IMG/VR virus record: IMGVR_UViG_2531839477_000013
Strand: one strand, 5' to 3'
Length of the DNA: 10,774 nt
DNA from: a virus
Taxonomy: Duplodnaviria; Heunggongvirae; Uroviricota; Caudoviricetes
Shown piece by piece: positions 1,311 through 10,774 of this stretch. The notes under the pieces are model-generated. The model was given only the letters and a program-made list of their open reading frames with translations. It ran no database searches and was not told the DNA's origin. Numbering within the stretch: the first letter of the stretch is position 1; every line of letters begins with the position of its first letter. Position numbers and translations under genes: made by a program.

Positions 1311-1368
1311 ATTTAGAATAACCTAACATGAGAGGCAAGTGTTTTTTGTTAGATTGATCTAACAAAAA
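1311..1368. promoter_or_regulatory. Candidate left operator pair at the dicB-operon promoter: 1347-1364 (TGTTAGA-ttga-TCTAACA, inside a 12-bp-arm palindrome 1343-1368) and degenerate 1311-1328
   Basis: Near-perfect inverted repeat seen directly. The same 18-bp motif recurs in the dicA-dicC intergenic region. Location between the dicA 3' end and ydfA matches where the DicA-repressed dicB operon promoter should be. Confidence 0.55.
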
Positions 1369-1400
1369 GGGTGGGCGCAACTAATCACTTGAAAAGAATG

Positions 1401-1808
1401 TTATTTTATTGATTTATTTTTACGCGCTTTAAGCATTTCTTCGAAGAGTTTGTTGAAGTTTTCTACTCTTGCGCGCATTTCAGACAGCAAGGCTTCCTGC
1501 TCGGAAGATGGAAGAGCATCGAATAATTCGATCAATTCTTTGTGGTTGGGAGTTAGCTCTGTTTCCACATGAAGTTCTTGTGCAGGCACTGGTGCCTTGT
1601 CTTCGTCACCAAACATTAGCCATGTAGGTGAGCACTTCAGAGCATCCGCTAAAGCAAACAATCGTTTTCCGACTGGCTGGGTTTCGTCTCTTTCCCATTG
1701 TGAAATTGTGACGTGAGCAACTCCAGCGAGGCGCGCGGCTTCTCGTTGTGTTAAGCGTAATTCTTTTCGTCGCGCCAGAACTCGCTGGCCCAGGGTTCTT
1801 GTATCCAT
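1401..1808 (-). CDS. dicA: DicA-type prophage repressor (HTH, cI/C2-like), 135 aa
   Basis: 135-aa ORF with an N-terminal HTH (LTQREAARLAGVAHVTISQWERDE) and a C-terminal ...MRARVENFNKLFEEMLKARKNK, closely resembling the K-12 DicA sequence I recall. Divergent from a cro-like gene. Confidence 0.92.
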   Translation of the reverse strand: MDTRTLGQRVLARRKELRLTQREAARLAGVAHVTISQWERDETQPVGKRLFALADALKCSPTWLMFGDEDKAPVPAQELHVETELTPNHKELIELFDALPSSEQEALLSEMRARVENFNKLFEEMLKARKNKSIK

Positions 1809-1889
1809 AGTTAGGTAATTCTAATTTTTCTTGACTTAGGTATCCCGCGCACAATAATGTTAGAAAAGTCTAACAAGAGGGGGGCTTTG
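1809..1889. promoter_or_regulatory. Divergent dicA/dicC promoter-operator region: operator TGTTAGA-aaag-TCTAACA at 1858-1875, degenerate site at 1809-1826, candidate sigma-70 promoter for dicC (TTGACT 1831-1836, AATAAT 1853-1858)
   Basis: Palindromes and promoter hexamers read directly from the sequence. The operator overlaps the -10/+1 of the rightward promoter, as expected for an OR-like switch. Confidence 0.55.
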
Positions 1890-2117
1890 ATGCTTAAAGT
1901 TGACGCAATTACTTTTTTTGGCAGCAAAACAAAGCTTGCCAATGCCGCAGGAGTGAGGCTGGCAAGTGTTGCTGCTTGGGGGATACTGGTTCCTGAAGGT
2001 CGCGCGATGCGTCTACAGGAGGCATCTGGCGGGGAGCTTCAGTATGATCCCAAAGTTTATGATGAATATCGTAAGACGAAGCGGGCGGGGCGGTTGAACA
2101 ATGAAAATCACTCCTGA
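1890..2117 (+). CDS. dicC: DicC (cro-like regulator), 75 aa
   Basis: Track ORF 1857..2117 begins at TTG. The ATG at 1890 is preceded by AAGAGGGGGG. Product MLKVDAITFFGSKTKLANAAGVRLASVAAWGILVPEGRAMRLQEASGGELQYDPKVYDEYRKTKRAGRLNNENHS resembles the K-12 DicC I recall. Confidence 0.88.
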   Translation: MLKVDAITFFGSKTKLANAAGVRLASVAAWGILVPEGRAMRLQEASGGELQYDPKVYDEYRKTKRAGRLNNENHS

Positions 2118-2622
2118 ACAGGCTCGTGAGGCTCTGGATGCCTGGATATGTCGACCAGGAATGACACAGGAGCAGGCGACGATATTAATCACTGAAGCAT
2201 TCTGGGCTTTGAAAGAGCGCCCGAACATCGATGTTCAGCGTGTCACAGATGAAGGTGGCGCGGTTGATCAGCGAGCGCTTGGTGTTAATCGAGTGAAGAT
2301 ATTCGAACGCTGGAAGGCTATCGACACCAGGGATAAGCGTGAAAAGTTCACGGCGCTAGTGCCTGCGATTATGGAGGCTATCCGGATTAGTGATTTCAGG
2401 TTGTATCGTGAAATTACTGACGGAAAAAGCATCACGTGCATGATCGCCGGGTTAAACAAAGAATATGGCGATGTGGTGGAGTCCGGACTGCTTTTTGCTG
2501 ATCCTGCCGTAGTGGATCGTGAAACTGACGAACTTATAGAAAAAGCAATTGCTTTCAAGCTTGCGTATCGACAGCAATACCAACAAAAAGCTGGATGGAA
2601 TTATGAGCCTTCTTTTTGCTGA
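2101..2622 (+). CDS. YdaT/YdfX-like early prophage protein (173 aa), function unknown (cII-position gene)
   Basis: 173-aa ORF. Its ATG overlaps the dicC 3' end by 17 nt, suggesting translational coupling. Family assignment is positional and from memory only. Confidence 0.7.
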   Translation: MKITPEQAREALDAWICRPGMTQEQATILITEAFWALKERPNIDVQRVTDEGGAVDQRALGVNRVKIFERWKAIDTRDKREKFTALVPAIMEAIRISDFRLYREITDGKSITCMIAGLNKEYGDVVESGLLFADPAVVDRETDELIEKAIAFKLAYRQQYQQKAGWNYEPSFC

Positions 2623-3568
2623 ACGCCCACTGGTTATAAACACGCAGCTGGCAATGAAAATTGGCTTAAACGAAGCCATTGTTTTGCAACAACTGCACTA
2701 CTGGTTGAGAGATACCAACTCCGGCATGGAATGTGATGGTGTTCGCTGGATTTATAACACAACGGAACAATGGCTGGAACAGTTCCCATTCTGGTCAGAG
2801 TCAACGTTAAAGCGCGCGTTTGCAAGTCTGAAAACGCTGGGGCTTTTGCGTTGTGAAAAGCTCAATAAATCAAAGCGCGATATGACCAATTTCTACACGA
2901 TCAACTATGGGAGCGAACTTTTAGATGGTGGCAAATTGAGCGAATCCATCGGTTCAAAATGCGCCGCTCCATCAGGTCAAAATGACACGATGGAAGAGGT
3001 CAAAATGAAACGCTCCATTGGTTCAAAACGACCCAATGTCATCGGGTCAAAATGGCCTGATGATCTTACAGAGAATACAACAGAGATTACTACAGAGAAT
3101 AAAAACACTTTTCGTCCGGAAGCTTCGCAACCGGACCCGCAGACGACTGAACAGGATTCTTTAACCCGGAACTCCGACGCGGTTGTGTTTAGTGCGAAAA
3201 AACGCCAGTGGGGTAGCAGGGAGGATTTGGCGTGTGCGCAGTGGATCTGGGGGCGGATCGTGGGTCTCTACGAACAGGCAGCCAGTGATGATGGCGAGAT
3301 CATGCGACCAAAAGAGCCTAACTGGACTGCCTGGGCCAATGACGTGCGCACAATGCGGATGCTGGATGGCAGAAGCCACAGACAAATTTGCGAAATGTTT
3401 GGTCGGGTTCAGCGAGATCCATTCTGGGTAAAAAACATCATGAGCCCGTCAAAGCTCCGCGAAAAATGGGACGAACTGGTCATCCGCCTGGGACGTTCAC
3501 CTGTACAGCGTTGTGTTAATCATATTTCTGAACCGGATACAGAAATTCCGCCTGGTTTCAGAGGATAA
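2603..3568 (+). CDS. Phage replication initiator: N-terminal winged-helix DNA-binding domain, iteron-containing linker, DnaT-like (primosomal protein I) C-terminal domain
   Basis: The ATG at 2603 (MSLLFAERPLVINTQLAMKIGLNEAIVLQQLHYWL...) is the first ATG; the track ORF starts at an upstream TTG at 2549. The C-terminus ...VNHISEPDTEIPPGFRG closely matches the E. coli DnaT C-terminus (...VSEPDSQIPPGFRG) as I recall it. Five iterons lie inside the gene, as in lambda O. Confidence 0.85.
   Translation: MSLLFAERPLVINTQLAMKIGLNEAIVLQQLHYWLRDTNSGMECDGVRWIYNTTEQWLEQFPFWSESTLKRAFASLKTLGLLRCEKLNKSKRDMTNFYTINYGSELLDGGKLSESIGSKCAAPSGQNDTMEEVKMKRSIGSKRPNVIGSKWPDDLTENTTEITTENKNTFRPEASQPDPQTTEQDSLTRNSDAVVFSAKKRQWGSREDLACAQWIWGRIVGLYEQAASDDGEIMRPKEPNWTAWANDVRTMRMLDGRSHRQICEMFGRVQRDPFWVKNIMSPSKLREKWDELVIRLGRSPVQRCVNHISEPDTEIPPGFRG
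2945..3054 (+). repeat. Replication origin iterons: five direct repeats at 23-24 bp spacing (2945, 2968, 2991, 3014, 3038), core GGT(T)CAAAA(T/C)G, followed by an A-rich tract with three ACAGAGA repeats (3068-3098)
   Basis: Repeats read directly: tccatcggttcaaaatg, tccatcaggtcaaaatg, tggaagaggtcaaaatg, tccattggttcaaaacg, gtcatcgggtcaaaatg. Their placement in the linker-coding region of the initiator gene parallels ori-lambda inside O. Confidence 0.75.
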
Positions 3569-3608: not shown

Positions 3609-4031
3609 GTGGCAAAAGTTTTTACACAAGAAGAGCGGGAAAAAATTAAATGGCAGGTGGTGGAACTCGTGCGCCAGAGCGGCCGTGAGACGTTACGGCA
3701 ACTGGAAGCTAAAACAGGTGCGACTAGATATCTGATGAGCGTTCTTGCCAGAGAGCTGGTAGCCAGTGGCGATGTATACAACTCCGGCTACGGGTTATTC
3801 CCCTCTGAACAGGCGCGTAAGGACTGGCAAAACGCCCGCAAAAAACTCTCGAGGGCAAAGGTGAAGAAACCTGCTGTGGTTGATCCGGACCTTATCTGGT
3901 CATCACCTGACGGAGAAATACGTCGCTACGACAGTCGCCTAAACATAATCTGTCGCGAGTGCCGGAAGAGCGAAGTTATGCAGCGCATACTGGCTTTCTA
4001 TCAGGGTAATTTTCAGGACGTGGCGCAGTGA
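3609..4031 (+). CDS. Hypothetical prophage protein (140 aa)
   Basis: GTG start at 3609 with a strong Shine-Dalgarno (AAGGGGGA) 5-12 nt upstream. The stop overlaps the next start (GTGA). No family recognised. Confidence 0.65.
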   Translation: MAKVFTQEEREKIKWQVVELVRQSGRETLRQLEAKTGATRYLMSVLARELVASGDVYNSGYGLFPSEQARKDWQNARKKLSRAKVKKPAVVDPDLIWSSPDGEIRRYDSRLNIICRECRKSEVMQRILAFYQGNFQDVAQ

Positions 4032-4474
4032 GTGCACCGGCAACCATTCTTGATATGTGCTGTGGCAGCCGCATGTTCTGGTTCGATAAGTCTGACAAAC
4101 GGGCGATATTCAGCGATATCAGAAAAGAAGGATACACATTACGCAATGGGAGACGCTTGATTATCAGCCCTGACATTATCGCAGATTTTCGTGCATTATC
4201 ATTTGCAGACGCATCTTTTTCGATGGTTGTATTAGACCCTCCGCATCTTGAGCGTGTTGGTGATAACGCCTGGATGGGAAAGAAATATGGACGGCTGAAT
4301 AAAGATGCCTGGCGTGATGATTTGCGACAGAGATTTAAAGAAGCTTTTCGGGTGTTGAGGTCGCACGGCGTTCTGATTTTTTAATGGAATGAAACGCAAA
4401 TACCGGTAAGCCAGATTCTGGCACTGACAGATAGAAAGCCTGTTATCTGTCAACGAACAGGGAAAAAACGATAA
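4028..4474 (+). pseudogene. SAM-dependent methyltransferase-like gene interrupted by an in-frame TAA at 4382-4384
   Basis: N-terminal motif-I-like ILDMCCGSRMF and motif-IV-like VLDPPH. After the TAA the same frame continues as WNETQIPVSQILALTDRKPVICQRTGKKR to a second TAA at 4472-4474. The track reports only 4028..4384. Confidence 0.55.
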
Positions 4475-4646
4475 AACCCACTGGATTATTTTTATGAAAG
4501 AGGCATCCAGTGAGTAGATTCGTAAGGTTACAGATACGTATATCTGAATAATTAAATTCAGTTCTGTAAATAAAACTTAATCCTTAACCGGATGGATTTC
4601 TGCACCCTCAGAACATCAGGAGGCCGCCCGAAAGGGCGGTAGTGAA

Positions 4647-4757
4647 ATGCGAAAGTTCAAAATTATTATTGAAACGGAAATAGCTGGTGGAGATTTTGAG
4701 GATGTATTCGAAGTGGACGATGACGCAACACCTGATGAAATTCATGACGGAGCATAA
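4647..4757 (+). CDS. Candidate small acidic protein (36 aa): MRKFKIIIETEIAGGDFEDVFEVDDDATPDEIHDGA
   Basis: Below the ORF-track cutoff. An AGGAGG at 4618-4623 is separated from the ATG by a GC-rich GAAA-tetraloop hairpin (4624-4639). Coding status unproven. Confidence 0.3.
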   Translation: MRKFKIIIETEIAGGDFEDVFEVDDDATPDEIHDGA

Positions 4758-4806
4758 GAAATTTTCTTTAACTACTGCAATTACTCATACCACGAAATAA
4801 AAGACG

Positions 4807-4998
4807 ATGAGGAAGAACAAAGTGGCTGATTTTTGTTCAGCTAAATATAACATCAGTTTTGAAGAGCGGGATGAACTATTAATGGACTATGGTGAATTAC
4901 GCGGTGGAAGTGCTGTTGATGTCGAATCCTAGCGTGATGACTATGAAGCGGGAAAAACTCCGGTCGAAGCATATTGTGATGAGTGGGGCGATGAATGA
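4807..4998 (+). pseudogene. Candidate small acidic protein ORF with an in-frame TAG at 4930-4932: MRKNKVADFCSAKYNISFEERDELLMDYGELRGGSAVDVES(*)RDDYEAGKTPVEAYCDEWGDE
   Basis: Frame read by hand. The terminal TGA (4996-4998) overlaps the ATG of the next ORF (ATGA). Weak Shine-Dalgarno. Confidence 0.3.
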
Positions 4999-5249
4999 GC
5001 GAGATTAATTATCAGGAAGGGCATGAAACGGCGGGGCAAGCAAAACCAGTGGCATGGCGATATCGCTACGTGAAAAAAGCGTTACGGACTTTCAGGGGAA
5101 GTAGTGGTCTGGTGACTGGAAATATGTACCGAAAAAAGAGGATTGTAACGACAGGCCGAACTATCAAATTCAGGCCTTATTCACTGCCTCACCAGTCCCG
5201 GTTACATCAGAAGAACTGGTTAAAGCTGTGCACTTTTATGAACAACTAA
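4995..5249 (+). CDS. Hypothetical ORF (84 aa), possibly a frameshifted remnant
   Basis: Track ORF. An overlapping alternative frame (5054-5281) reads like protein (WSGDWKYVPKKEDCNDRPNYQIQALFTASPVPVTSEELVKAVHFYEQLKRENPPTSGN) but is itself broken by a TAG at 5102-5104. Confidence 0.3.
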   Translation: MSEINYQEGHETAGQAKPVAWRYRYVKKALRTFRGSSGLVTGNMYRKKRIVTTGRTIKFRPYSLPHQSRLHQKNWLKLCTFMNN

Positions 5250-5535
5250 AACGCGAAAATCCACCAACATCCGGCAACTAGATTAATGGATTAACTATGT
5301 CGGTTAAACGACCAGCCAACTGAAAAAGCGGAAACCTGATTACAGGTTGCCAGATAAGGCAATGAGCTACCTGGCGCGGAACGGACTGATAAGTATGGGG
5401 AATGTTTTACGATGAACCTTTAGACTAAAGAGTTTGTAACGCTATGTAAGTGATTTTTTCTGGTTTAGATATTTATATGTCCGGCCAAATTGAGGTGTGT
5501 TTAAATGTAATTGCACATTGATTGTAGGAGGAATA

Positions 5536-5715
5536 ATGAAAAACGCATTGCAGTTTTTGTTTGTTGCGTTCTGGTTGTTCGCATCATGTATGCCCATCAT
5601 CTTCACAGCAAGGTATATGGAAAAAGTTGATGTTTTGATATTAATATTTGGATATATAAATGCCCTTTTTTTAGGGGTGTTCATGGCGGTCATGTGCATT
5701 GAATACTGGCGGTAA
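5536..5715 (+). CDS. Small membrane protein, two predicted transmembrane helices (59 aa)
   Basis: ATG at 5536 preceded by GTAGGAGG (5524-5531). Product MKNALQFLFVAFWLFASCMPIIFTARYMEKVDVLILIFGYINALFLGVFMAVMCIEYWR. The track ORF 5497..5715 begins upstream. Sits in markedly AT-rich DNA. Confidence 0.5.
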   Translation: MKNALQFLFVAFWLFASCMPIIFTARYMEKVDVLILIFGYINALFLGVFMAVMCIEYWR

Positions 5716-6049
5716 ATACAGCGAACTCCATTGGTTTAGTTGGATATTTACTGTGCTGGACAAAAACGGTTTGCGGGGAAATCTTAGTTAAGTAGAATGA
5801 CTGCGGGTGCTTGAGGCTATCTGCCTCGGGCATGGACACCAACGGCAGATAGAGAAAAGCCCCAGTTAACATTACGCGTCCTGCAAGACGCTTAACATTA
5901 ATCTGAGGCCAATTTCATGCTAGACACATGTAGGTTAGCCTCTTACGTGCCGAAAGGCACGGAGAAGCAGGCTATTGTTAACACCAAGCTGTAATGTCCC
6001 CTTTGAACCATTCAAAAATGTCCCCAGACAATTCTCTGGGGGATTTTTC

Positions 6050-7390
6050 ATGATCAAAGAGACTGTTACGATGAGTCATAAGGAACTCCACCGACTTCAG
6101 ATTATTCAGGAGTCAATTAATCGACATATTACTCAGGAACAAGCTGCGGCACGCATTGGCATTTCTATTCGGCAGGTTAAACGTCTGGTGCAACGGTATA
6201 GAAATGAAGGGCCTTCTGGTCTGGTTTCCCACCGACGTGGAAAGCGTCCTAATAATTCCTTTTCTACTGAATTCAGAGCAACAGTAATTTCACTCCTCAA
6301 AGGCCGTTACGCTGATTTTGGACCTACGTTTGCGTGCGAAAAATTGCGCGAGATACACGGTTTATCTTTATCCGTTGAAACTCTCAGAAAGTGGATGATA
6401 GAAGAGGGGTTATGGCGTGAACGCCGTCGTAAAATTGCCCGTATATATCAACGCCGCATGCGACGACCATCTTATGGTGAACTGATCCAGATTGATGGCT
6501 CACCTCATGACTGGTTTGAAAATCGAGGCCCCAGATGTACACTGATCGTTTTCATTGATGATGCCACCAGTGCGTTGATGGCGTTGCGTTTTGTGCCTGC
6601 TGAAACAACCCGGGCTTACATGGAAACCCTCCGGGGTTACCTTAATGATCATGGCGTACCGCTCGCTCTCTACTCTGATAGACACAGTATATTCAGGGTA
6701 AATAACCCAGAGCGGGAAGGTGAGCTGACCCAGTTCACTCGTGCGATAAAGACACTGGGCATCGAGCCAATCCATGCCAACAGCCCGCAGGCAAAAGGGC
6801 GGGTAGAGCGCGCCAATCAGACACTACAGGACAGGCTGGTCAAAGAAATGCGGCTTCAGAATATCAGTGATATTGAAACAGCAAATGCATGGTTGCCGAC
6901 CTTTATTGAAGCCTATAACAACCGGTTCGCTACGTCGCCTCGTACTACTGATAATGCTCATCTTGATGTGCACCATTCTGAAGAGGAACTGGGTTATATC
7001 TTCAGCCTACAGGCGAAGCGCGTTCTGTCTAAAAATCTCACTTTCCAGTACAAAAGCAGTGCGTTTCAGGTACGCAGTGAGAGCCGGGGATATCGACTTA
7101 GGCATTCGGTTGTTACTGTATGCGAGAACTTTGACGGTGAAATTAACGTTCTGTATGACGGGAAAGCGCTGGGCTGGGAAAAGTATGTTGATGGCCCGGA
7201 GCCTATACCACTGGATGATGAAAAGAGTGTCCATGAACGAGTGGATAATGCCCGTATTGATTTACGCTCAAAATACTATGTTAAACCTAAAGCTGACCAT
7301 CCCTGGCTTACGCGCCGAACGCAAAGTCATCAGCAAGTTAAGCCCCCGAAGTTACCTAAAAAGAAGCCTGATCCCGATAAAAAAGATTGA
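6050..7390 (+). CDS. DDE transposase-like protein of the rve (integrase core) type, N-terminal HTH, 446 aa; IS481/ISNCY-like
   Basis: First in-frame ATG at 6050 after a GGGGGA Shine-Dalgarno (track ORF starts at TTG 5975). Catalytic-looking residues IQIDGS, LYSDRHS, GRVERANQTL. Probably the full-length counterpart of the intK fragment I recall in K-12 Qin. Element boundaries not identified. Confidence 0.82.
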   Translation: MIKETVTMSHKELHRLQIIQESINRHITQEQAAARIGISIRQVKRLVQRYRNEGPSGLVSHRRGKRPNNSFSTEFRATVISLLKGRYADFGPTFACEKLREIHGLSLSVETLRKWMIEEGLWRERRRKIARIYQRRMRRPSYGELIQIDGSPHDWFENRGPRCTLIVFIDDATSALMALRFVPAETTRAYMETLRGYLNDHGVPLALYSDRHSIFRVNNPEREGELTQFTRAIKTLGIEPIHANSPQAKGRVERANQTLQDRLVKEMRLQNISDIETANAWLPTFIEAYNNRFATSPRTTDNAHLDVHHSEEELGYIFSLQAKRVLSKNLTFQYKSSAFQVRSESRGYRLRHSVVTVCENFDGEINVLYDGKALGWEKYVDGPEPIPLDDEKSVHERVDNARIDLRSKYYVKPKADHPWLTRRTQSHQQVKPPKLPKKKPDPDKKD

Positions 7391-7826: not shown

Positions 7827-8159
7827 TTAGACGTAAATATCAATGGTGCCAGCGGTATTTGTATCGTCTTTTTTCTCTTCTTTTTTATCAGGCTGAACTG
7901 TCGCGTCTTCATTCTTTTTCTCTGCCTGCTGCCTTAACAACTGCTCCAGTTGAGCCCAGAGGCTTTCAATTTGCTTCTGTACCAATGCAGCCATTTCTTT
8001 TTTCTGCTGTGTCGTCATCCCCTCTTCCGATGAGATTTTCCCAAGCTTTTCAGTCAGCACCTGAATTTGTCTTGTGATTTTGGCTATTTCTGATGTTCCT
8101 TCCGGGGCGGAGTTGTTTGAAATAACGGTTGAGGTATTTCCCTGAATTGTGACAGACAT
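7827..8159 (-). CDS. flxA: FlxA (sigma-28 dependent prophage protein), 110 aa
   Basis: 110-aa ORF MSVTIQGNTSTVISNNSAPEGTSEIAKITRQIQ..., matching FlxA as I recall it. AAGGAG Shine-Dalgarno 7 nt upstream of the ATG. Confidence 0.9.
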   Translation of the reverse strand: MSVTIQGNTSTVISNNSAPEGTSEIAKITRQIQVLTEKLGKISSEEGMTTQQKKEMAALVQKQIESLWAQLEQLLRQQAEKKNEDATVQPDKKEEKKDDTNTAGTIDIYV

Positions 8160-8182
8160 AGATTTCTCCTTTTAAAAAAGCA

Positions 8183-8209
8183 CTATCGGCATGAACAAAA
8201 AAATCTTTA
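8183..8209 (-). promoter_or_regulatory. FliA (sigma-28) promoter of flxA
   Basis: Minus strand reads TAAAGATT-N11-GCCGATAG, a close match to the sigma-28 consensus TAAAGTTT-N11-GCCGATAA, placed about 25 nt upstream of the flxA ATG. Confidence 0.8.
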
Positions 8210-8361
8210 ATCGTATTTCTTGTGTCATTAATTGTTTGATGTTCAGATTGTTTTCCTCGCGGGCTGGCGCGCCTCAGAAAGTAAAGCTTGTTGACAGGGG
8301 TAAACGTTCGGCAATAATTTTCTGCCGCATGCGGGTGTTGCATAAAACGTGTTACGTTCCT

Positions 8362-8667
8362 TTATCGACAGGTCAGGTCACCGCTCACCCGCCGACGAGA
8401 AAGCAACACTGACATGCTAAAGCAAAAAATAGATGAATAAGTTGAGTTGTGCATATGTAGCCTGACCGTCACAAAGTATATGGTGTCTGTACCAGTAAGA
8501 TGATGGCCGGACTCTTTAAAAACGAGCTGACCTGCACAATACAGGATGGACTTAGCAATGGCTGCTCCTGGCAGAAAGCGGACAGTGATCACCGTTCTTA
8601 CGACTACTTTCTGACTTCCTTCGTGACTTGCCCTAAGCATGTTGTAGTGCGATACTTGTAATGACAT
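8362..8667 (-). CDS. YdfV-like hypothetical ORF (101 aa), doubtful
   Basis: ORF length matches the 101-aa ydfV I recall between flxA and relB in K-12. The sequence has no recognisable features and its 5' end overlaps the relBE promoter-operator. Confidence 0.3.
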   Translation of the reverse strand: MSLQVSHYNMLRASHEGSQKVVVRTVITVRFLPGAAIAKSILYCAGQLVFKESGHHLTGTDTIYFVTVRLHMHNSTYSSIFCFSMSVLLSRRRVSGDLTCR

Positions 8668-8680
8668 TTGTAATTACAAG
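8628..8680 (+). promoter_or_regulatory. relBE promoter and operator: TTGCCC (8628-8633), 17-bp spacer, GATACT (8651-8656), operator repeats CTTGTAATGACATTTGTAATTACAAG (8655-8680)
   Basis: Hexamers and the TTGTAAT/ATTACAA palindrome read directly. Position immediately upstream of relB fits the autoregulated relBE operator. Confidence 0.65.
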
Positions 8681-8691
8681 AGGTGTAAGAC

Positions 8692-8931
8692 ATGGGTAGC
8701 ATTAACCTGCGTATTGACGATGAACTTAAAGCGCGTTCTTACGCCGCGCTTGAAAAAATGGGTGTAACTCCTTCTGAAGCGCTTCGTCTCATGCTCGAGT
8801 ATATCGCTGACAATGAACGCTTGCCGTTCAAACAGACACTCCTGAGTGATGAAGATGCTGAACTTGTGGAGATAGTGAAAGAACGGCTTCGTAATCCTAA
8901 GCCAGTACGTGTGACGCTGGATGAACTCTGA
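8692..8931 (+). CDS. relB: RelB antitoxin (79 aa)
   Basis: Product MGSINLRIDDELKARSYAALEKMGVTPSEALRLMLEYIADNERLPFKQTLLSDEDAELVEIVKERLRNPKPVRVTLDEL is near-identical to K-12 RelB as I recall it. Its stop overlaps the relE start by 1 nt. Confidence 0.95.
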   Translation: MGSINLRIDDELKARSYAALEKMGVTPSEALRLMLEYIADNERLPFKQTLLSDEDAELVEIVKERLRNPKPVRVTLDEL

Positions 8932-9218
8932 TGGCGTATTTTCTGGATTTTGACGAGCGGGCACTAAAGGAATGGCGAAAGCTGGGCTCGACGGTACGTG
9001 AACAGTTGAAAAAGAAGCTGGTTGAAGTACTTGAGTCACCCCGGATTGAAGCAAACAAGCTCCGTGGTATGCCTGATTGTTACAAGATTAAGCTCCGGTC
9101 TTCAGGCTATCGCCTTGTATACCAGGTTATAGACGAGAAAGTTGTCGTTTTCGTGATTTCTGTTGGGAAAAGAGAACGCTCGGAAGTATATAGCGAGGCG
9201 GTCAAACGCATTCTCTGA
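8931..9218 (+). CDS. relE: RelE toxin (mRNA interferase), 95 aa
   Basis: Product MAYFLDFDERALKEWRKLGSTVREQLKKKLVEVLESPRIEANKLRGMPDCYKIKLRSSGYRLVYQVIDEKVVVFVISVGKRERSEVYSEAVKRIL matches RelE as I recall it. Confidence 0.95.
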   Translation: MAYFLDFDERALKEWRKLGSTVREQLKKKLVEVLESPRIEANKLRGMPDCYKIKLRSSGYRLVYQVIDEKVVVFVISVGKRERSEVYSEAVKRIL

Positions 9219-9289
9219 ACCAAAGCATGACATCTCTGTTTCGCACCGAAGGTGACACTTCTGCTTTGCGTTGACAGGAGAAGCAGGCT

Positions 9290-9445
9290 ATGAAGCAGCA
9301 AAAGGCGATGTTAATCGCCCTGATCGTCATCTGTTTAACCGTCATAGTGACGGCACTGGTAACGAGGAAAGACCTCTGCGAGGTACGAATCCGAACCGGC
9401 CAGACGGAGGTCGCTGTCTTCACAGCTTACGAACCTGAGGAGTAA
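9290..9445 (+). CDS. hokD: HokD (RelF) Hok-family membrane toxin, 51 aa, below the ORF-track cutoff
   Basis: Hand translation gives MKQQKAMLIALIVICLTVIVTALVTRKDLCEVRIRTGQTEVAVFTAYEPEE with TAA at 9443-9445. A typical Hok sequence, in the expected place after relE. Confidence 0.9.
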   Translation: MKQQKAMLIALIVICLTVIVTALVTRKDLCEVRIRTGQTEVAVFTAYEPEE

Positions 9446-9467
9446 GAGACCAGGCGGGGGAGAATCC

Positions 9468-10774
9468 CATAAGCGCTAACTTAAGGGTTGTGGTATTACG
9501 CCTGATATGATTTAACGTGCCGATGAATTACTCTCACGATAACTGGTCAGCAATTCTGGCCCATATTGGTAAGCCCGAAGAACTGGATACTTCGGCACGT
9601 AATGCCGGGGCTCTAACCCGCCGCCGCGAAATTCGTGATGCTGCAACTCTGCTACGTCTGGGGCTGGCTTACGGCCCCGGGGGGATGTCATTACGTGAAG
9701 TCACTGCATGGGCTCAGCTCCATGACGTTGCAACATTATCTGACGTGGCTCTCCTGAAGCGGCTGCGGAATGCCGCCGACTGGTTTGGCATACTTGCCGC
9801 ACAAACACTTGCTGTACGCGCCGCAGTTACGGGTTGTACAAGCGGAAAGAGATTGCGTCTTGTCGATGGAACAGCAATCAGTGCGCCCGGGGGCGGCAGC
9901 GCTGAATGGCGACTACATATGGGATATGATCCTCATACCTGTCAGTTCACTGATTTTGAGCTAACCGACAGCAGAGACGCTGAACGGCTGGACCGATTTG
10001 CGCAAACGGCAGACGAGATACGCATTGCTGACCGGGGATTCGGTTCGCGTCCCGAATGTATCCGCTCACTTGCTTTTGGAGAAGCTGATTATATCGTCCG
10101 GGTTCACTGGCGAGGATTGCGCTGGTTAACTGCAGAAGGAATGCGCTTTGACATGATGGGTTTTCTGCGCGGGCTGGATTGCGGTAAGAACGGTGAAACC
10201 ACTGTAATGATAGGCAATTCAGGTAATAAAAAAGCCGGAGCTCCCTTTCCGGCACGTCTCATTGCCGTATCACTTCCTCCCGAAAAAGCATTAATCAGTA
10301 AAACCCGACTGCTCAGCGAGAATCGTCGAAAAGGACGAGTAGTTCAGGCGGAAACGCTGGAAGCAGCGGGCCATGTGCTATTGCTAACATCATTACCGGA
10401 AGATGAATATTCAGCAGAGCAAGTGGCTGATTGTTACCGTCTGCGATGGCAAATTGAACTGGCTTTTAAGCGGCTCAAAAGTTTGCTGCACCTGGATGCT
10501 TTGCGTGCAAAGGAACCTGAACTCGCGAAAGCGTGGATATTTGCTAATCTACTCGCCGCATTTTTAATTGACGACATAATCCAGCCATCGCTGGATTTCC
10601 CCCCCAGAAGTGCCGGATCCGAAAAGAAGAACTAACTCGTTGTGGAGAATAACAAAAATGGTCATCTGGAGCTTACAGGTGGCCATTCGTGGGACAGTAT
10701 CCCTGACAGCCTACAAAACGCAATTGAAGAACGCGAGGCATCGTCTTAACGAGGCACCGAGGCGTCGCATTCTT
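9468..10774 (+). mobile_element. IS186 (IS4 family), left end at 9468; right end lies about 30 bp beyond the window
   Basis: The sequence from CATAAGCGCTAACTTAAGGGTTG (9468-) matches the IS186 left terminus as I recall it. The window ends inside the element just before the expected right inverted repeat. Inserted 22 bp after the hokD stop in a GC-rich site (GGCGGGGGAGAATCC). Confidence 0.88.
9523..10635 (+). CDS. insL: IS186 transposase (IS4 family, DDE), 370 aa
   Basis: ATG at 9523 (track ORF starts at GTG 9517). Product MNYSHDNWSAILAHIGKPEELD... with the IS4-family Y-x2-R-x3-E-x6-K motif (YRLRWQIELAFKRLK). Confidence 0.9.
   Translation: MNYSHDNWSAILAHIGKPEELDTSARNAGALTRRREIRDAATLLRLGLAYGPGGMSLREVTAWAQLHDVATLSDVALLKRLRNAADWFGILAAQTLAVRAAVTGCTSGKRLRLVDGTAISAPGGGSAEWRLHMGYDPHTCQFTDFELTDSRDAERLDRFAQTADEIRIADRGFGSRPECIRSLAFGEADYIVRVHWRGLRWLTAEGMRFDMMGFLRGLDCGKNGETTVMIGNSGNKKAGAPFPARLIAVSLPPEKALISKTRLLSENRRKGRVVQAETLEAAGHVLLLTSLPEDEYSAEQVADCYRLRWQIELAFKRLKSLLHLDALRAKEPELAKAWIFANLLAAFLIDDIIQPSLDFPPRSAGSEKKN

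Follow-up and report, generated by a model that had tools for sequence, protein, structure and literature searches.

The window, by which we mean the whole 10,774-nucleotide stretch of DNA that was analyzed, is part of a Qin-like lambdoid prophage of E. coli. Positions 1 to 2700 matched the complete genome of strain S1-IND-01-A at 99.5%, and a single match covering at least 80% of the same region was found in 771 of 5,426 complete E. coli genomes. Genes were called from the annotation of the 99.5%-identical genome record together with our own comparisons. A dicA-like repressor gene occupies 1401-1808 on the minus strand. Its 135-amino-acid product carries an N-terminal HTH_3 domain and is 57% identical to K-12 DicA; the recognition helix is nearly the same as that of K-12 DicA despite this overall divergence, and the N-terminal 70 residues match the solved N-terminal (DNA-binding) domain of P22 C2 (E = 1e-18). 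Pfam assigned only helix-turn-helix families to the repressor and detected no peptidase or LexA-like (S24) autocleavage domain in its 135 residues. The neighboring, divergent gene at 1890-2117 (plus strand; start codon taken from the annotation of the 99.5%-identical genome) encodes a Cro-type protein of 75 amino acids with 86% identity to K-12 DicC and a Pfam P22_Cro match (E = 5e-12). The names dicA and dicC given to these genes in the initial annotation are right in view of the two identities. Downstream of the dicC-like gene, a YdaT-family gene and a replication gene lie on the plus strand of the window. On the other side of the repressor gene, the annotation of the near-identical record places the dicB operon at 1-1232 on the minus strand, with ydfA at 1077-1232 (Pfam DUF1391), ydfB at 947-1075, ydfC at 699-917, and the 5′ part of dicB at 1-130; the DicF RNA was identified by Rfam at 305-356 on the same strand (76.7 bits).

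Both noncoding gaps that border the dicA-like open reading frame contain repeated 18-bp dyads with a common half-site. A search of the window for the pattern TGTTAGANNNNTCTAACA gave zero-mismatch matches at 1347-1364 (TGTTAGATTGATCTAACA) and 1858-1875 (TGTTAGAAAAGTCTAACA) and a match with three mismatches at 1311-1328. Another three-mismatch match, at 4080-4097, was rejected, being no more than chance would give and located inside a coding sequence. The shorter pattern TTAG-N6-CTAA occurs four times in the 10.8 kb of the window (starting at 1313, 1349, 1811, and 1860), where 0.16 occurrences were expected, and a count of four was reached in none of 200 shuffles. All four copies fall in the two gaps, and the pattern search thus bore out the degenerate relatives that had been noticed at 1311-1328 and 1809-1826. 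The site at 1347-1364 is contained in a longer palindrome, with 12-nt arms at 1343-1354 and 1357-1368 that are 100% complementary. The initial annotation had described these arms exactly, but they are specific to the lineage and missing from the K-12 counterpart.

The two control regions align at the DNA level with the annotated immC region of phage P22, in which OR1 to OR3, OL1 to OL3, PR, PRM, and PL are marked. In the right region, the dicA-dicC gap, the exact motif at 1858-1875 is the equivalent of P22 OR1 and aligns base for base with the K-12 operator Oc, with identical half-sites and a different center. (None of the candidate operators is assigned a strand.) The dicC promoter (1831-1858, plus strand) consists of a −35 element, TTGACT, at 1831-1836, a 16-bp spacer, and a −10 element, AATAAT, at 1853-1858, with a predicted start at about 1865. 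It was the sole consensus promoter found by a promoter scan of 1150-2000 (10/12), and it aligns with the annotated P22 PR, in which the same −35 element is paired with GATAAT. Oc covers the predicted dicC start site and overlaps the −10 element, as had been proposed, by a single base: the last −10 base (1858) is the first base of the site. Oa, at 1809-1826 (AGTTAGGTAATTCTAATT), is a TTAG-N6-CTAA dyad that aligns with P22 OR3 (AGTTAAGTCATCTTAAAT). As OR3 abuts the start of c2, Oa adjoins the dicA start codon, and it overlies the predicted dicA −10 element and start site. A middle site, Om, at 1834-1851 (ACTTAGGTATCCCGCGCA), is a decayed equivalent of P22 OR2 by positional homology. By our own count it agrees at about 7 of 14 half-site positions, and its center lies 25 and 24 bp from those of the neighboring sites, versus 25 and 23 bp in P22. 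The Om equivalent is better kept in the Enterobacter/Pantoea/PPompW group. This decayed third site in the right region comes in addition to the four sites first noticed.

A weak dicA promoter, equivalent to P22 PRM, is predicted at 1812-1846 on the minus strand (−35 GGGATA, 1846-1841; −10 TAGAAT, 1823-1818; start at about 1812). It was placed by alignment to the annotated PRM and to the 5′ end of the RM transcript. The predicted promoter is below or near the threshold of the consensus scan and rests on homology; its −10 element, TAGAAT, is kept in homologues. The resulting dicA leader is predicted to be about 4 nt long, without a Shine-Dalgarno sequence, and would be the counterpart of the near-leaderless maintenance transcript of P22. 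Lambda PRM transcripts are leaderless-like as well. The OR2-like site that would overlie the dicA −35 element is decayed.

In the left region, a dicB-operon promoter equivalent to P22 PL is predicted at 1302-1338 on the minus strand (−35 TTGCCT, 1338-1333; 17-bp spacer; −10 TAAATT, 1315-1310). Its start at about 1302, like that of dicA, was obtained by mapping P22 transcript 5′ ends onto the window. With 8 of 12 consensus positions, this promoter falls under the scan threshold and was not called by the scan. It aligns with the annotated P22 PL and the PL 5′ end, and the pattern TTG(A/C)C.-17-TAA(A/T)(T/C)T was present in all homologues examined. The promoter-proximal site at 1311-1328 (ATTTAGAATAACCTAACA), the OL1 equivalent, aligns with P22 OL1 and with a K-12 site, lies between the predicted −35 and −10 elements, and is kept in homologues. 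The distal site at 1347-1364, an exact copy of the motif and the OL2 equivalent, lies just upstream of the −35 element, 36 bp from the proximal site (35 bp in P22). The initial annotation had assigned this pair to the place where the dicB-operon promoter should be, and the assignment holds with a correction to the arrangement, the weak site being the one between −35 and −10 and the perfect palindrome the one upstream of −35. Inspection by eye of 1369-1400 for an OL3 equivalent revealed none, just one lone GATTAG-like half-site. Each of the three promoters, for early rightward, maintenance, and early leftward transcription, is thus overlapped by sites of this kind; the latter two promoters were placed by homology and conservation. 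A DicA site at dicB is listed in the Reg-Seq compilation with low evidence and an unknown location; the left region offers a concrete placement for DicA sites at this promoter.

The arrangement had been likened to OL/OR of lambda. That layout is correct, but the nearest model is P22 immC and not lambda. With lambda the window shares divergent repressor and Cro genes, operators over PR and PRM and again at the early promoter for leftward transcription, and the logic of a bistable switch. It differs from lambda in that lambda sites are 17 bp long, the operators have no sequence homology, the repressor in the window is not SOS cleavable, and each region has just two good sites. With P22 it shares 18-bp dyads, an OR3 that abuts the repressor start, the −35 element of PR, a repressor N-terminal domain (45% identical), and a Cro protein of the P22_Cro family. 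The differences from P22 are a half-site of TGTTAG(N) rather than ATTTAAG, a decayed OR2 equivalent, an unrecognized OL3 equivalent, and the repressor itself: C2 has 216 amino acids with a C-terminal LexA-like cleavage domain, whereas the 135-residue DicA-like protein is without one. Because it lacks this domain, induction cannot go through RecA cleavage. K-12 DicA likewise is without the Ala-Gly cleavage bond, and induction in K-12 goes via the antirepressor Rem (PMC10448788). Rem lies outside the window.

The Qin prophage of K-12 carries the orthologous locus with the same gene order, and its operators (Oc, Om, Oa, and those at dicBp) are described in the literature (Béjar et al., 1988, as cited in PMC3441716 and PMC10448788). 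K-12 Oc is TTGTTAGTCATAACTAACAA (Yun et al., 2012, PMC3441716). DicA-dependent repression in vivo and binding were shown for this site, and one A-to-C half-site change abolished them; Oc overlaps the −10 element of dicC, whose start was mapped by 5′ RACE (PMC3441716). DicA at Oc represses dicC and activates dicA, the transcription of which needs DicA, and single-base changes in Oc arise upon high-copy cloning of the region (PMC3441716). DicA also represses dicBp, operator sets being present at both dicCp and dicBp, and together DicA and DicC form a bistable switch (Ragunathan et al., PMC10448788). The window has the same Oc half-sites, TGTTAG and CTAACA, at the same position relative to the dicC −10 element and the dicA ATG. 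Alignment sets 1809-1826 opposite the K-12 site beside the dicA start, so that a weak site abuts dicA in both, and the two K-12 sites before ydfA, which likewise flank the −35 element of the dicB-operon promoter, align with 1311-1328 and 1347-1364. The window differs from K-12 in the repressor (57% identity), in the spacer bases, in the left distal site, which is imperfect in K-12 (TGTTAGCTATAGCATACA) and a perfect palindrome here, and in being more complete downstream of dicC, where an intact YdaT-family gene and a gene for replication occupy the place of the K-12 pseudogene ydfX.

DicA homologues were collected from genomes of E. ruysiae, E. albertii, Citrobacter, Buttiauxella, Enterobacter, Pantoea, and Erwinia and from phages PPompW, phiES15, 'Rac' 442/2, Klebsiella ST405-OXA48phi1.2, PhiR42_1, mEp460, and a Stenotrophomonas phage. 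Three frameshifted matches from the genome scan (L011 to L013) were left out, and Campylobacter matches, which covered the C-terminal helix only, were ignored. A scan of IMG/VR with the DicA alignment was useless for deep divergence because it returned near-identical alleles only; these were used as a population sample (79 alleles). In all homologues, 18-bp dyads are centered 57.5 to 59.5 and 8.5 to 9.5 bp upstream of the repressor ATG, and two further dyads lie 35 to 36 bp apart around a TTG(A/C)C −35 element downstream of the repressor gene. These positions are kept in six genera (Escherichia, Citrobacter, Buttiauxella, Enterobacter, Pantoea, and Klebsiella) as well as in Cronobacter and Stenotrophomonas phages. 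The initial annotation had proposed that conservation of the half-sites be examined in related immunity regions, and the half-sites are indeed kept. Among the six lineages of the TGTTAG group, mean pairwise identity at Oc was 1.00 for the half-sites, 0.48 for the central six bases, and 0.48 for the flanks. The corresponding values within this group were 0.90, 0.43, and 0.56 at the left distal site and 0.87, 0.32, and 0.62 at the left proximal site. The 79 IMG/VR alleles gave the same picture: at Oc, TGTTAG was present in 79 and CTAACA in 78, with five variants of the center, and at the left distal site CTAACA was present in 79 and TGTTAG in 78, with 12 variants of the center. The palindromes at 1347-1364 and 1858-1875 had been described as 7+4+7, and in the window they are exactly that, but the conserved core is 6+6+6 (TGTTAG-N6-CTAACA), position 7 being variable among relatives. 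P22 repressor binds as a dimer to 18-bp sites and leaves the central 4 bp uncontacted (PMC4267663); invariant half-sites with hypervariable centers match this mode of recognition.

The half-sites also covary with recognition residues of the cognate repressor. TGTTAG-N6-CTAACA is paired with repressors of the form TQR...(A/S)HV(T/S)(I/V)SQWE and CCTTAGG-N4-CCTAAGG with SQ(A/S)...HVTISQWE. In mEp460, ATTGAG-TTTT-CTCAAT is paired with SGSSISLWES, and in phiES15, ACTAAC-TTTT-GTTAGT is paired with SSVSVFKWEN. Contacted half-sites are thus kept and centers are free, while the half-sites follow the protein. Given the positions of the sites, the retention of the contacted bases, and the covariation with the protein, repressor binding is the only reasonable reading of these sequence comparisons.

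The same comparisons bear on the proposal that the palindromes arose by chance in AT-rich DNA, or that host factors such as H-NS/Cnu or YjdC bind them, the prophage repressor playing no part. H-NS/CnuK9E does antagonize DicA at Oc (PMC3441716), and YjdC was reported at the dic locus by ChIP-qPCR (PMC9283627). Against this, the four matches stand far above the 0.16 expected, the half-sites are kept where the centers are free, and the half-site changes together with the repressor helix-turn-helix across phages of different hosts; host-factor targets are disfavored because their sites would not show such covariation. We consider this proposal extremely improbable.

It is also very unlikely, if slightly less so, that the palindrome at 1343-1368 is an RNA hairpin or terminator that ends dicA transcription before the toxic dicB operon. 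In minus-strand RNA it can form an 11-bp hairpin (−14.3 kcal/mol in an 81-nt context, z = −3.2), the window lineage has no second hairpin in the stretch from dicA to the dicB promoter, and at this place the homologues from Pantoea, PPompW, phiES15, and mEp460 carry a GC hairpin with a T run after it. However, no U-tract follows the hairpin of the window on either strand, a terminator scan did not call it, and K-12 has no such long arms. Identical half-sites recur at 1858-1875, where a terminator is not needed, and the variation is found in the loop-side center while the half-sites are fixed, a pattern that fits recognition by a protein.

A protein other than DicA could be the main ligand of some of the sites. 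On this account the sites, or at least the weak ones at 1809-1826 and 1311-1328, mainly serve the Cro-like DicC, and DicA uses the two perfect palindromes only. When each was tested singly in vivo, neither Oa nor Om of K-12 bound DicA (PMC3441716), and in O157:H7 dicA is repressed when DicC is overexpressed (cited in PMC10448788). Oa is identical in all 79 alleles and hardly changes between specificity groups A and B, although Oc differs between them. A comparison of DicC helix-turn-helix motifs with the operator groups showed that PPompW, which has group B (CCTTAGG) operators at Oc, has a DicC helix-turn-helix of the window type and the same Oa, so that the DicC motif does not follow the operator groups neatly. 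In the lambda paradigm, Cro prefers OR3, which speaks for the same account. However, Oa might be conserved just as well on account of the dicA −10 element, TAGAAT, embedded in it, and the two P22 proteins share their operators. We regard an assignment of the sites mainly to DicC as somewhat unlikely. A preferential role for DicC at the weak sites is possible, but it is compatible with repressor operators in both regions and would refine that model rather than replace it. Since K-12 Oa alone did not bind DicA, the role of Oa may be DicC's or may need cooperativity.

On the model of repressor operators, we infer that this DicA allele, although only 57% identical to the K-12 protein, binds the sites; where transcription starts and what the weak sites and DicC do are likewise predictions. 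A dimer of the 135-residue protein would sit on each 18-bp dyad, each helix-turn-helix reading one outer TGTTAG half-site, and the central bases of the dyads would not be directly read. Occupancy of 1858-1875 would cover the end of the dicC −10 element and the start site (−10 to about +11), switching dicC off, and would favor the weak, overlapping, almost leaderless dicA promoter. Occupancy of 1809-1826 would cover the dicA −10 element and start, and this site is the likely point at which dicA is shut off by DicC, the Cro analogue, or by excess DicA. The sites at 1311-1328 and 1347-1364 would together silence the division-inhibitor operon ydfABC-dicF-dicB. The center of Oc lies some 55 bp upstream of the start predicted for dicA. 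Activators do not classically sit at such a distance, which makes direct activation from Oc uncertain. Stimulation of dicA by DicA at Oc might instead come about through cooperative filling of the decayed OR2-like site or through relief from competition by the dicC promoter.

Together, positional homology with K-12 Oc, homology with P22 immC, and conservation of the half-sites support the repressor-operator reading of the initial annotation, and we conclude that the four sites very probably serve as operators in the P22-type immunity switch of a Qin-like E. coli prophage (a probability of roughly 0.88). The finding is correct but ordinary and not novel in kind, since work on E. coli K-12 had already reported both the motif and the layout (Béjar et al., 1988; Yun et al., 2012). 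No new principle follows, as the operator sequence and a layout like that of P22 have been in the literature since 1988 and 2012; what the finding adds is precise mutagenesis coordinates for a common non-K-12 allele, found in 771 complete E. coli genomes.

More tentatively, the DicA family may form a natural series of immunity specificities, a suggestion that we would not press. The recognition helix AHVTISQWE would stay constant throughout the series, while the outer two half-site bases (TG versus CC) switch with the residues at the start of helix 2 (TQR versus SQA or SQS). The center, which is hypervariable within one specificity (5 to 12 variants in 79 alleles, with ACTTTT, ATATTT, and ATATTC among the natural spacers), could tune affinity by indirect readout. 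The suggestion also includes a near-leaderless dicA mRNA and a DicA "activation" at Oc that might mean that the strong dicC promoter overlapping that of dicA no longer competes with it, and not that DicA contacts RNA polymerase. If this is true, variation in the operator centers could set how easily each prophage's division-inhibitor operon is switched on.

Across 79 near-identical IMG/VR alleles (L029 to L108), the control regions were almost identical except at the two perfect predicted DicA operators (1347-1364 and 1858-1875). The central six bases of these operators were hotspots of variation, with 12 variants at 1347-1364 and 5 at 1858-1875. The predicted site adjoining the dicA start (1809-1826) was identical in 79/79 alleles. 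For the comparison of operator sequence with the repressor helix-turn-helix, four homologous loci (L008, L009, L026, and L109) were set against the window. There, repressors that share the window repressor's recognition helix (AHVTISQWERD) have CCTTAGG-N4-CCTAAGG as their predicted operator in place of TGTTAG-N6-CTAACA. The consistent protein difference between the TGTTAG and CCTTAGG groups lies at the start of helix 2 (TQR versus SQ(A/S)). The phage homologue PPompW pairs CCTTAGG-type operators with a DicC whose helix-turn-helix is that of the window, suggesting recombination within the gap.

No Shine-Dalgarno sequence was found ahead of the dicA ATG (window 1809-1823, minus strand; dicA starts at 1808). 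A conserved TAGAAT lies 10 to 15 nt upstream of the ATG on the same strand. By homology to the annotated 5′ end of the P22 RM transcript, dicA mRNA is predicted to begin ~4 nt before the ATG and would therefore be near-leaderless, like the PRM transcripts of lambda and P22. Two papers on K-12 report that their authors found no dicA promoter there.

Within 2101-3568, dicC is followed by a YdaT-family gene (intact, 173 aa) and then by a replication-type gene (321 to 339 aa), whereas K-12 Qin has only the truncated ydfX pseudogene in their place. The window prophage is thus less decayed than K-12 Qin. A 118-aa ORF at 4028-4384 had no Pfam match, and the 1.5 kb that follow it (within 4028-5900) have lower G+C (about 0.39 to 0.46) and short ORFs only; this stretch is possibly an insert that has decayed or is of foreign origin. 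A full-length Rfam match to sok, the hok/sok antisense RNA (104 bits, 5805-5976, plus strand), ends where a 471-aa plus-strand transposase ORF with HTH_28 and an rve_3 integrase core begins (5975-7390). No intact hok-size ORF adjoins the sok match, and the arrangement looks like a hok/sok locus interrupted by an IS element. From recognition of their translations, we take genes in 7827-10635 to be flxA (minus strand), relB, relE, and hokD, and the product of the 372-aa ORF directly after hokD (9517-10635) resembles an IS186-type transposase. There was no Rfam match to sok beside hokD.

Sequences downstream of the repressor stop in L009, L026, L027, and L111 were compared with window 1365-1400. 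The window lineage (1365-1400), K-12, and Citrobacter lack an intrinsic terminator in the stretch from the dicA stop codon to the promoter of the dicB operon. In the homologues from Pantoea, PPompW, phiES15, and mEp460, the gap after the repressor stop is longer and contains a GC hairpin with a T run. Bound repressor may be the sole block to dicA read-through into the toxic operon.
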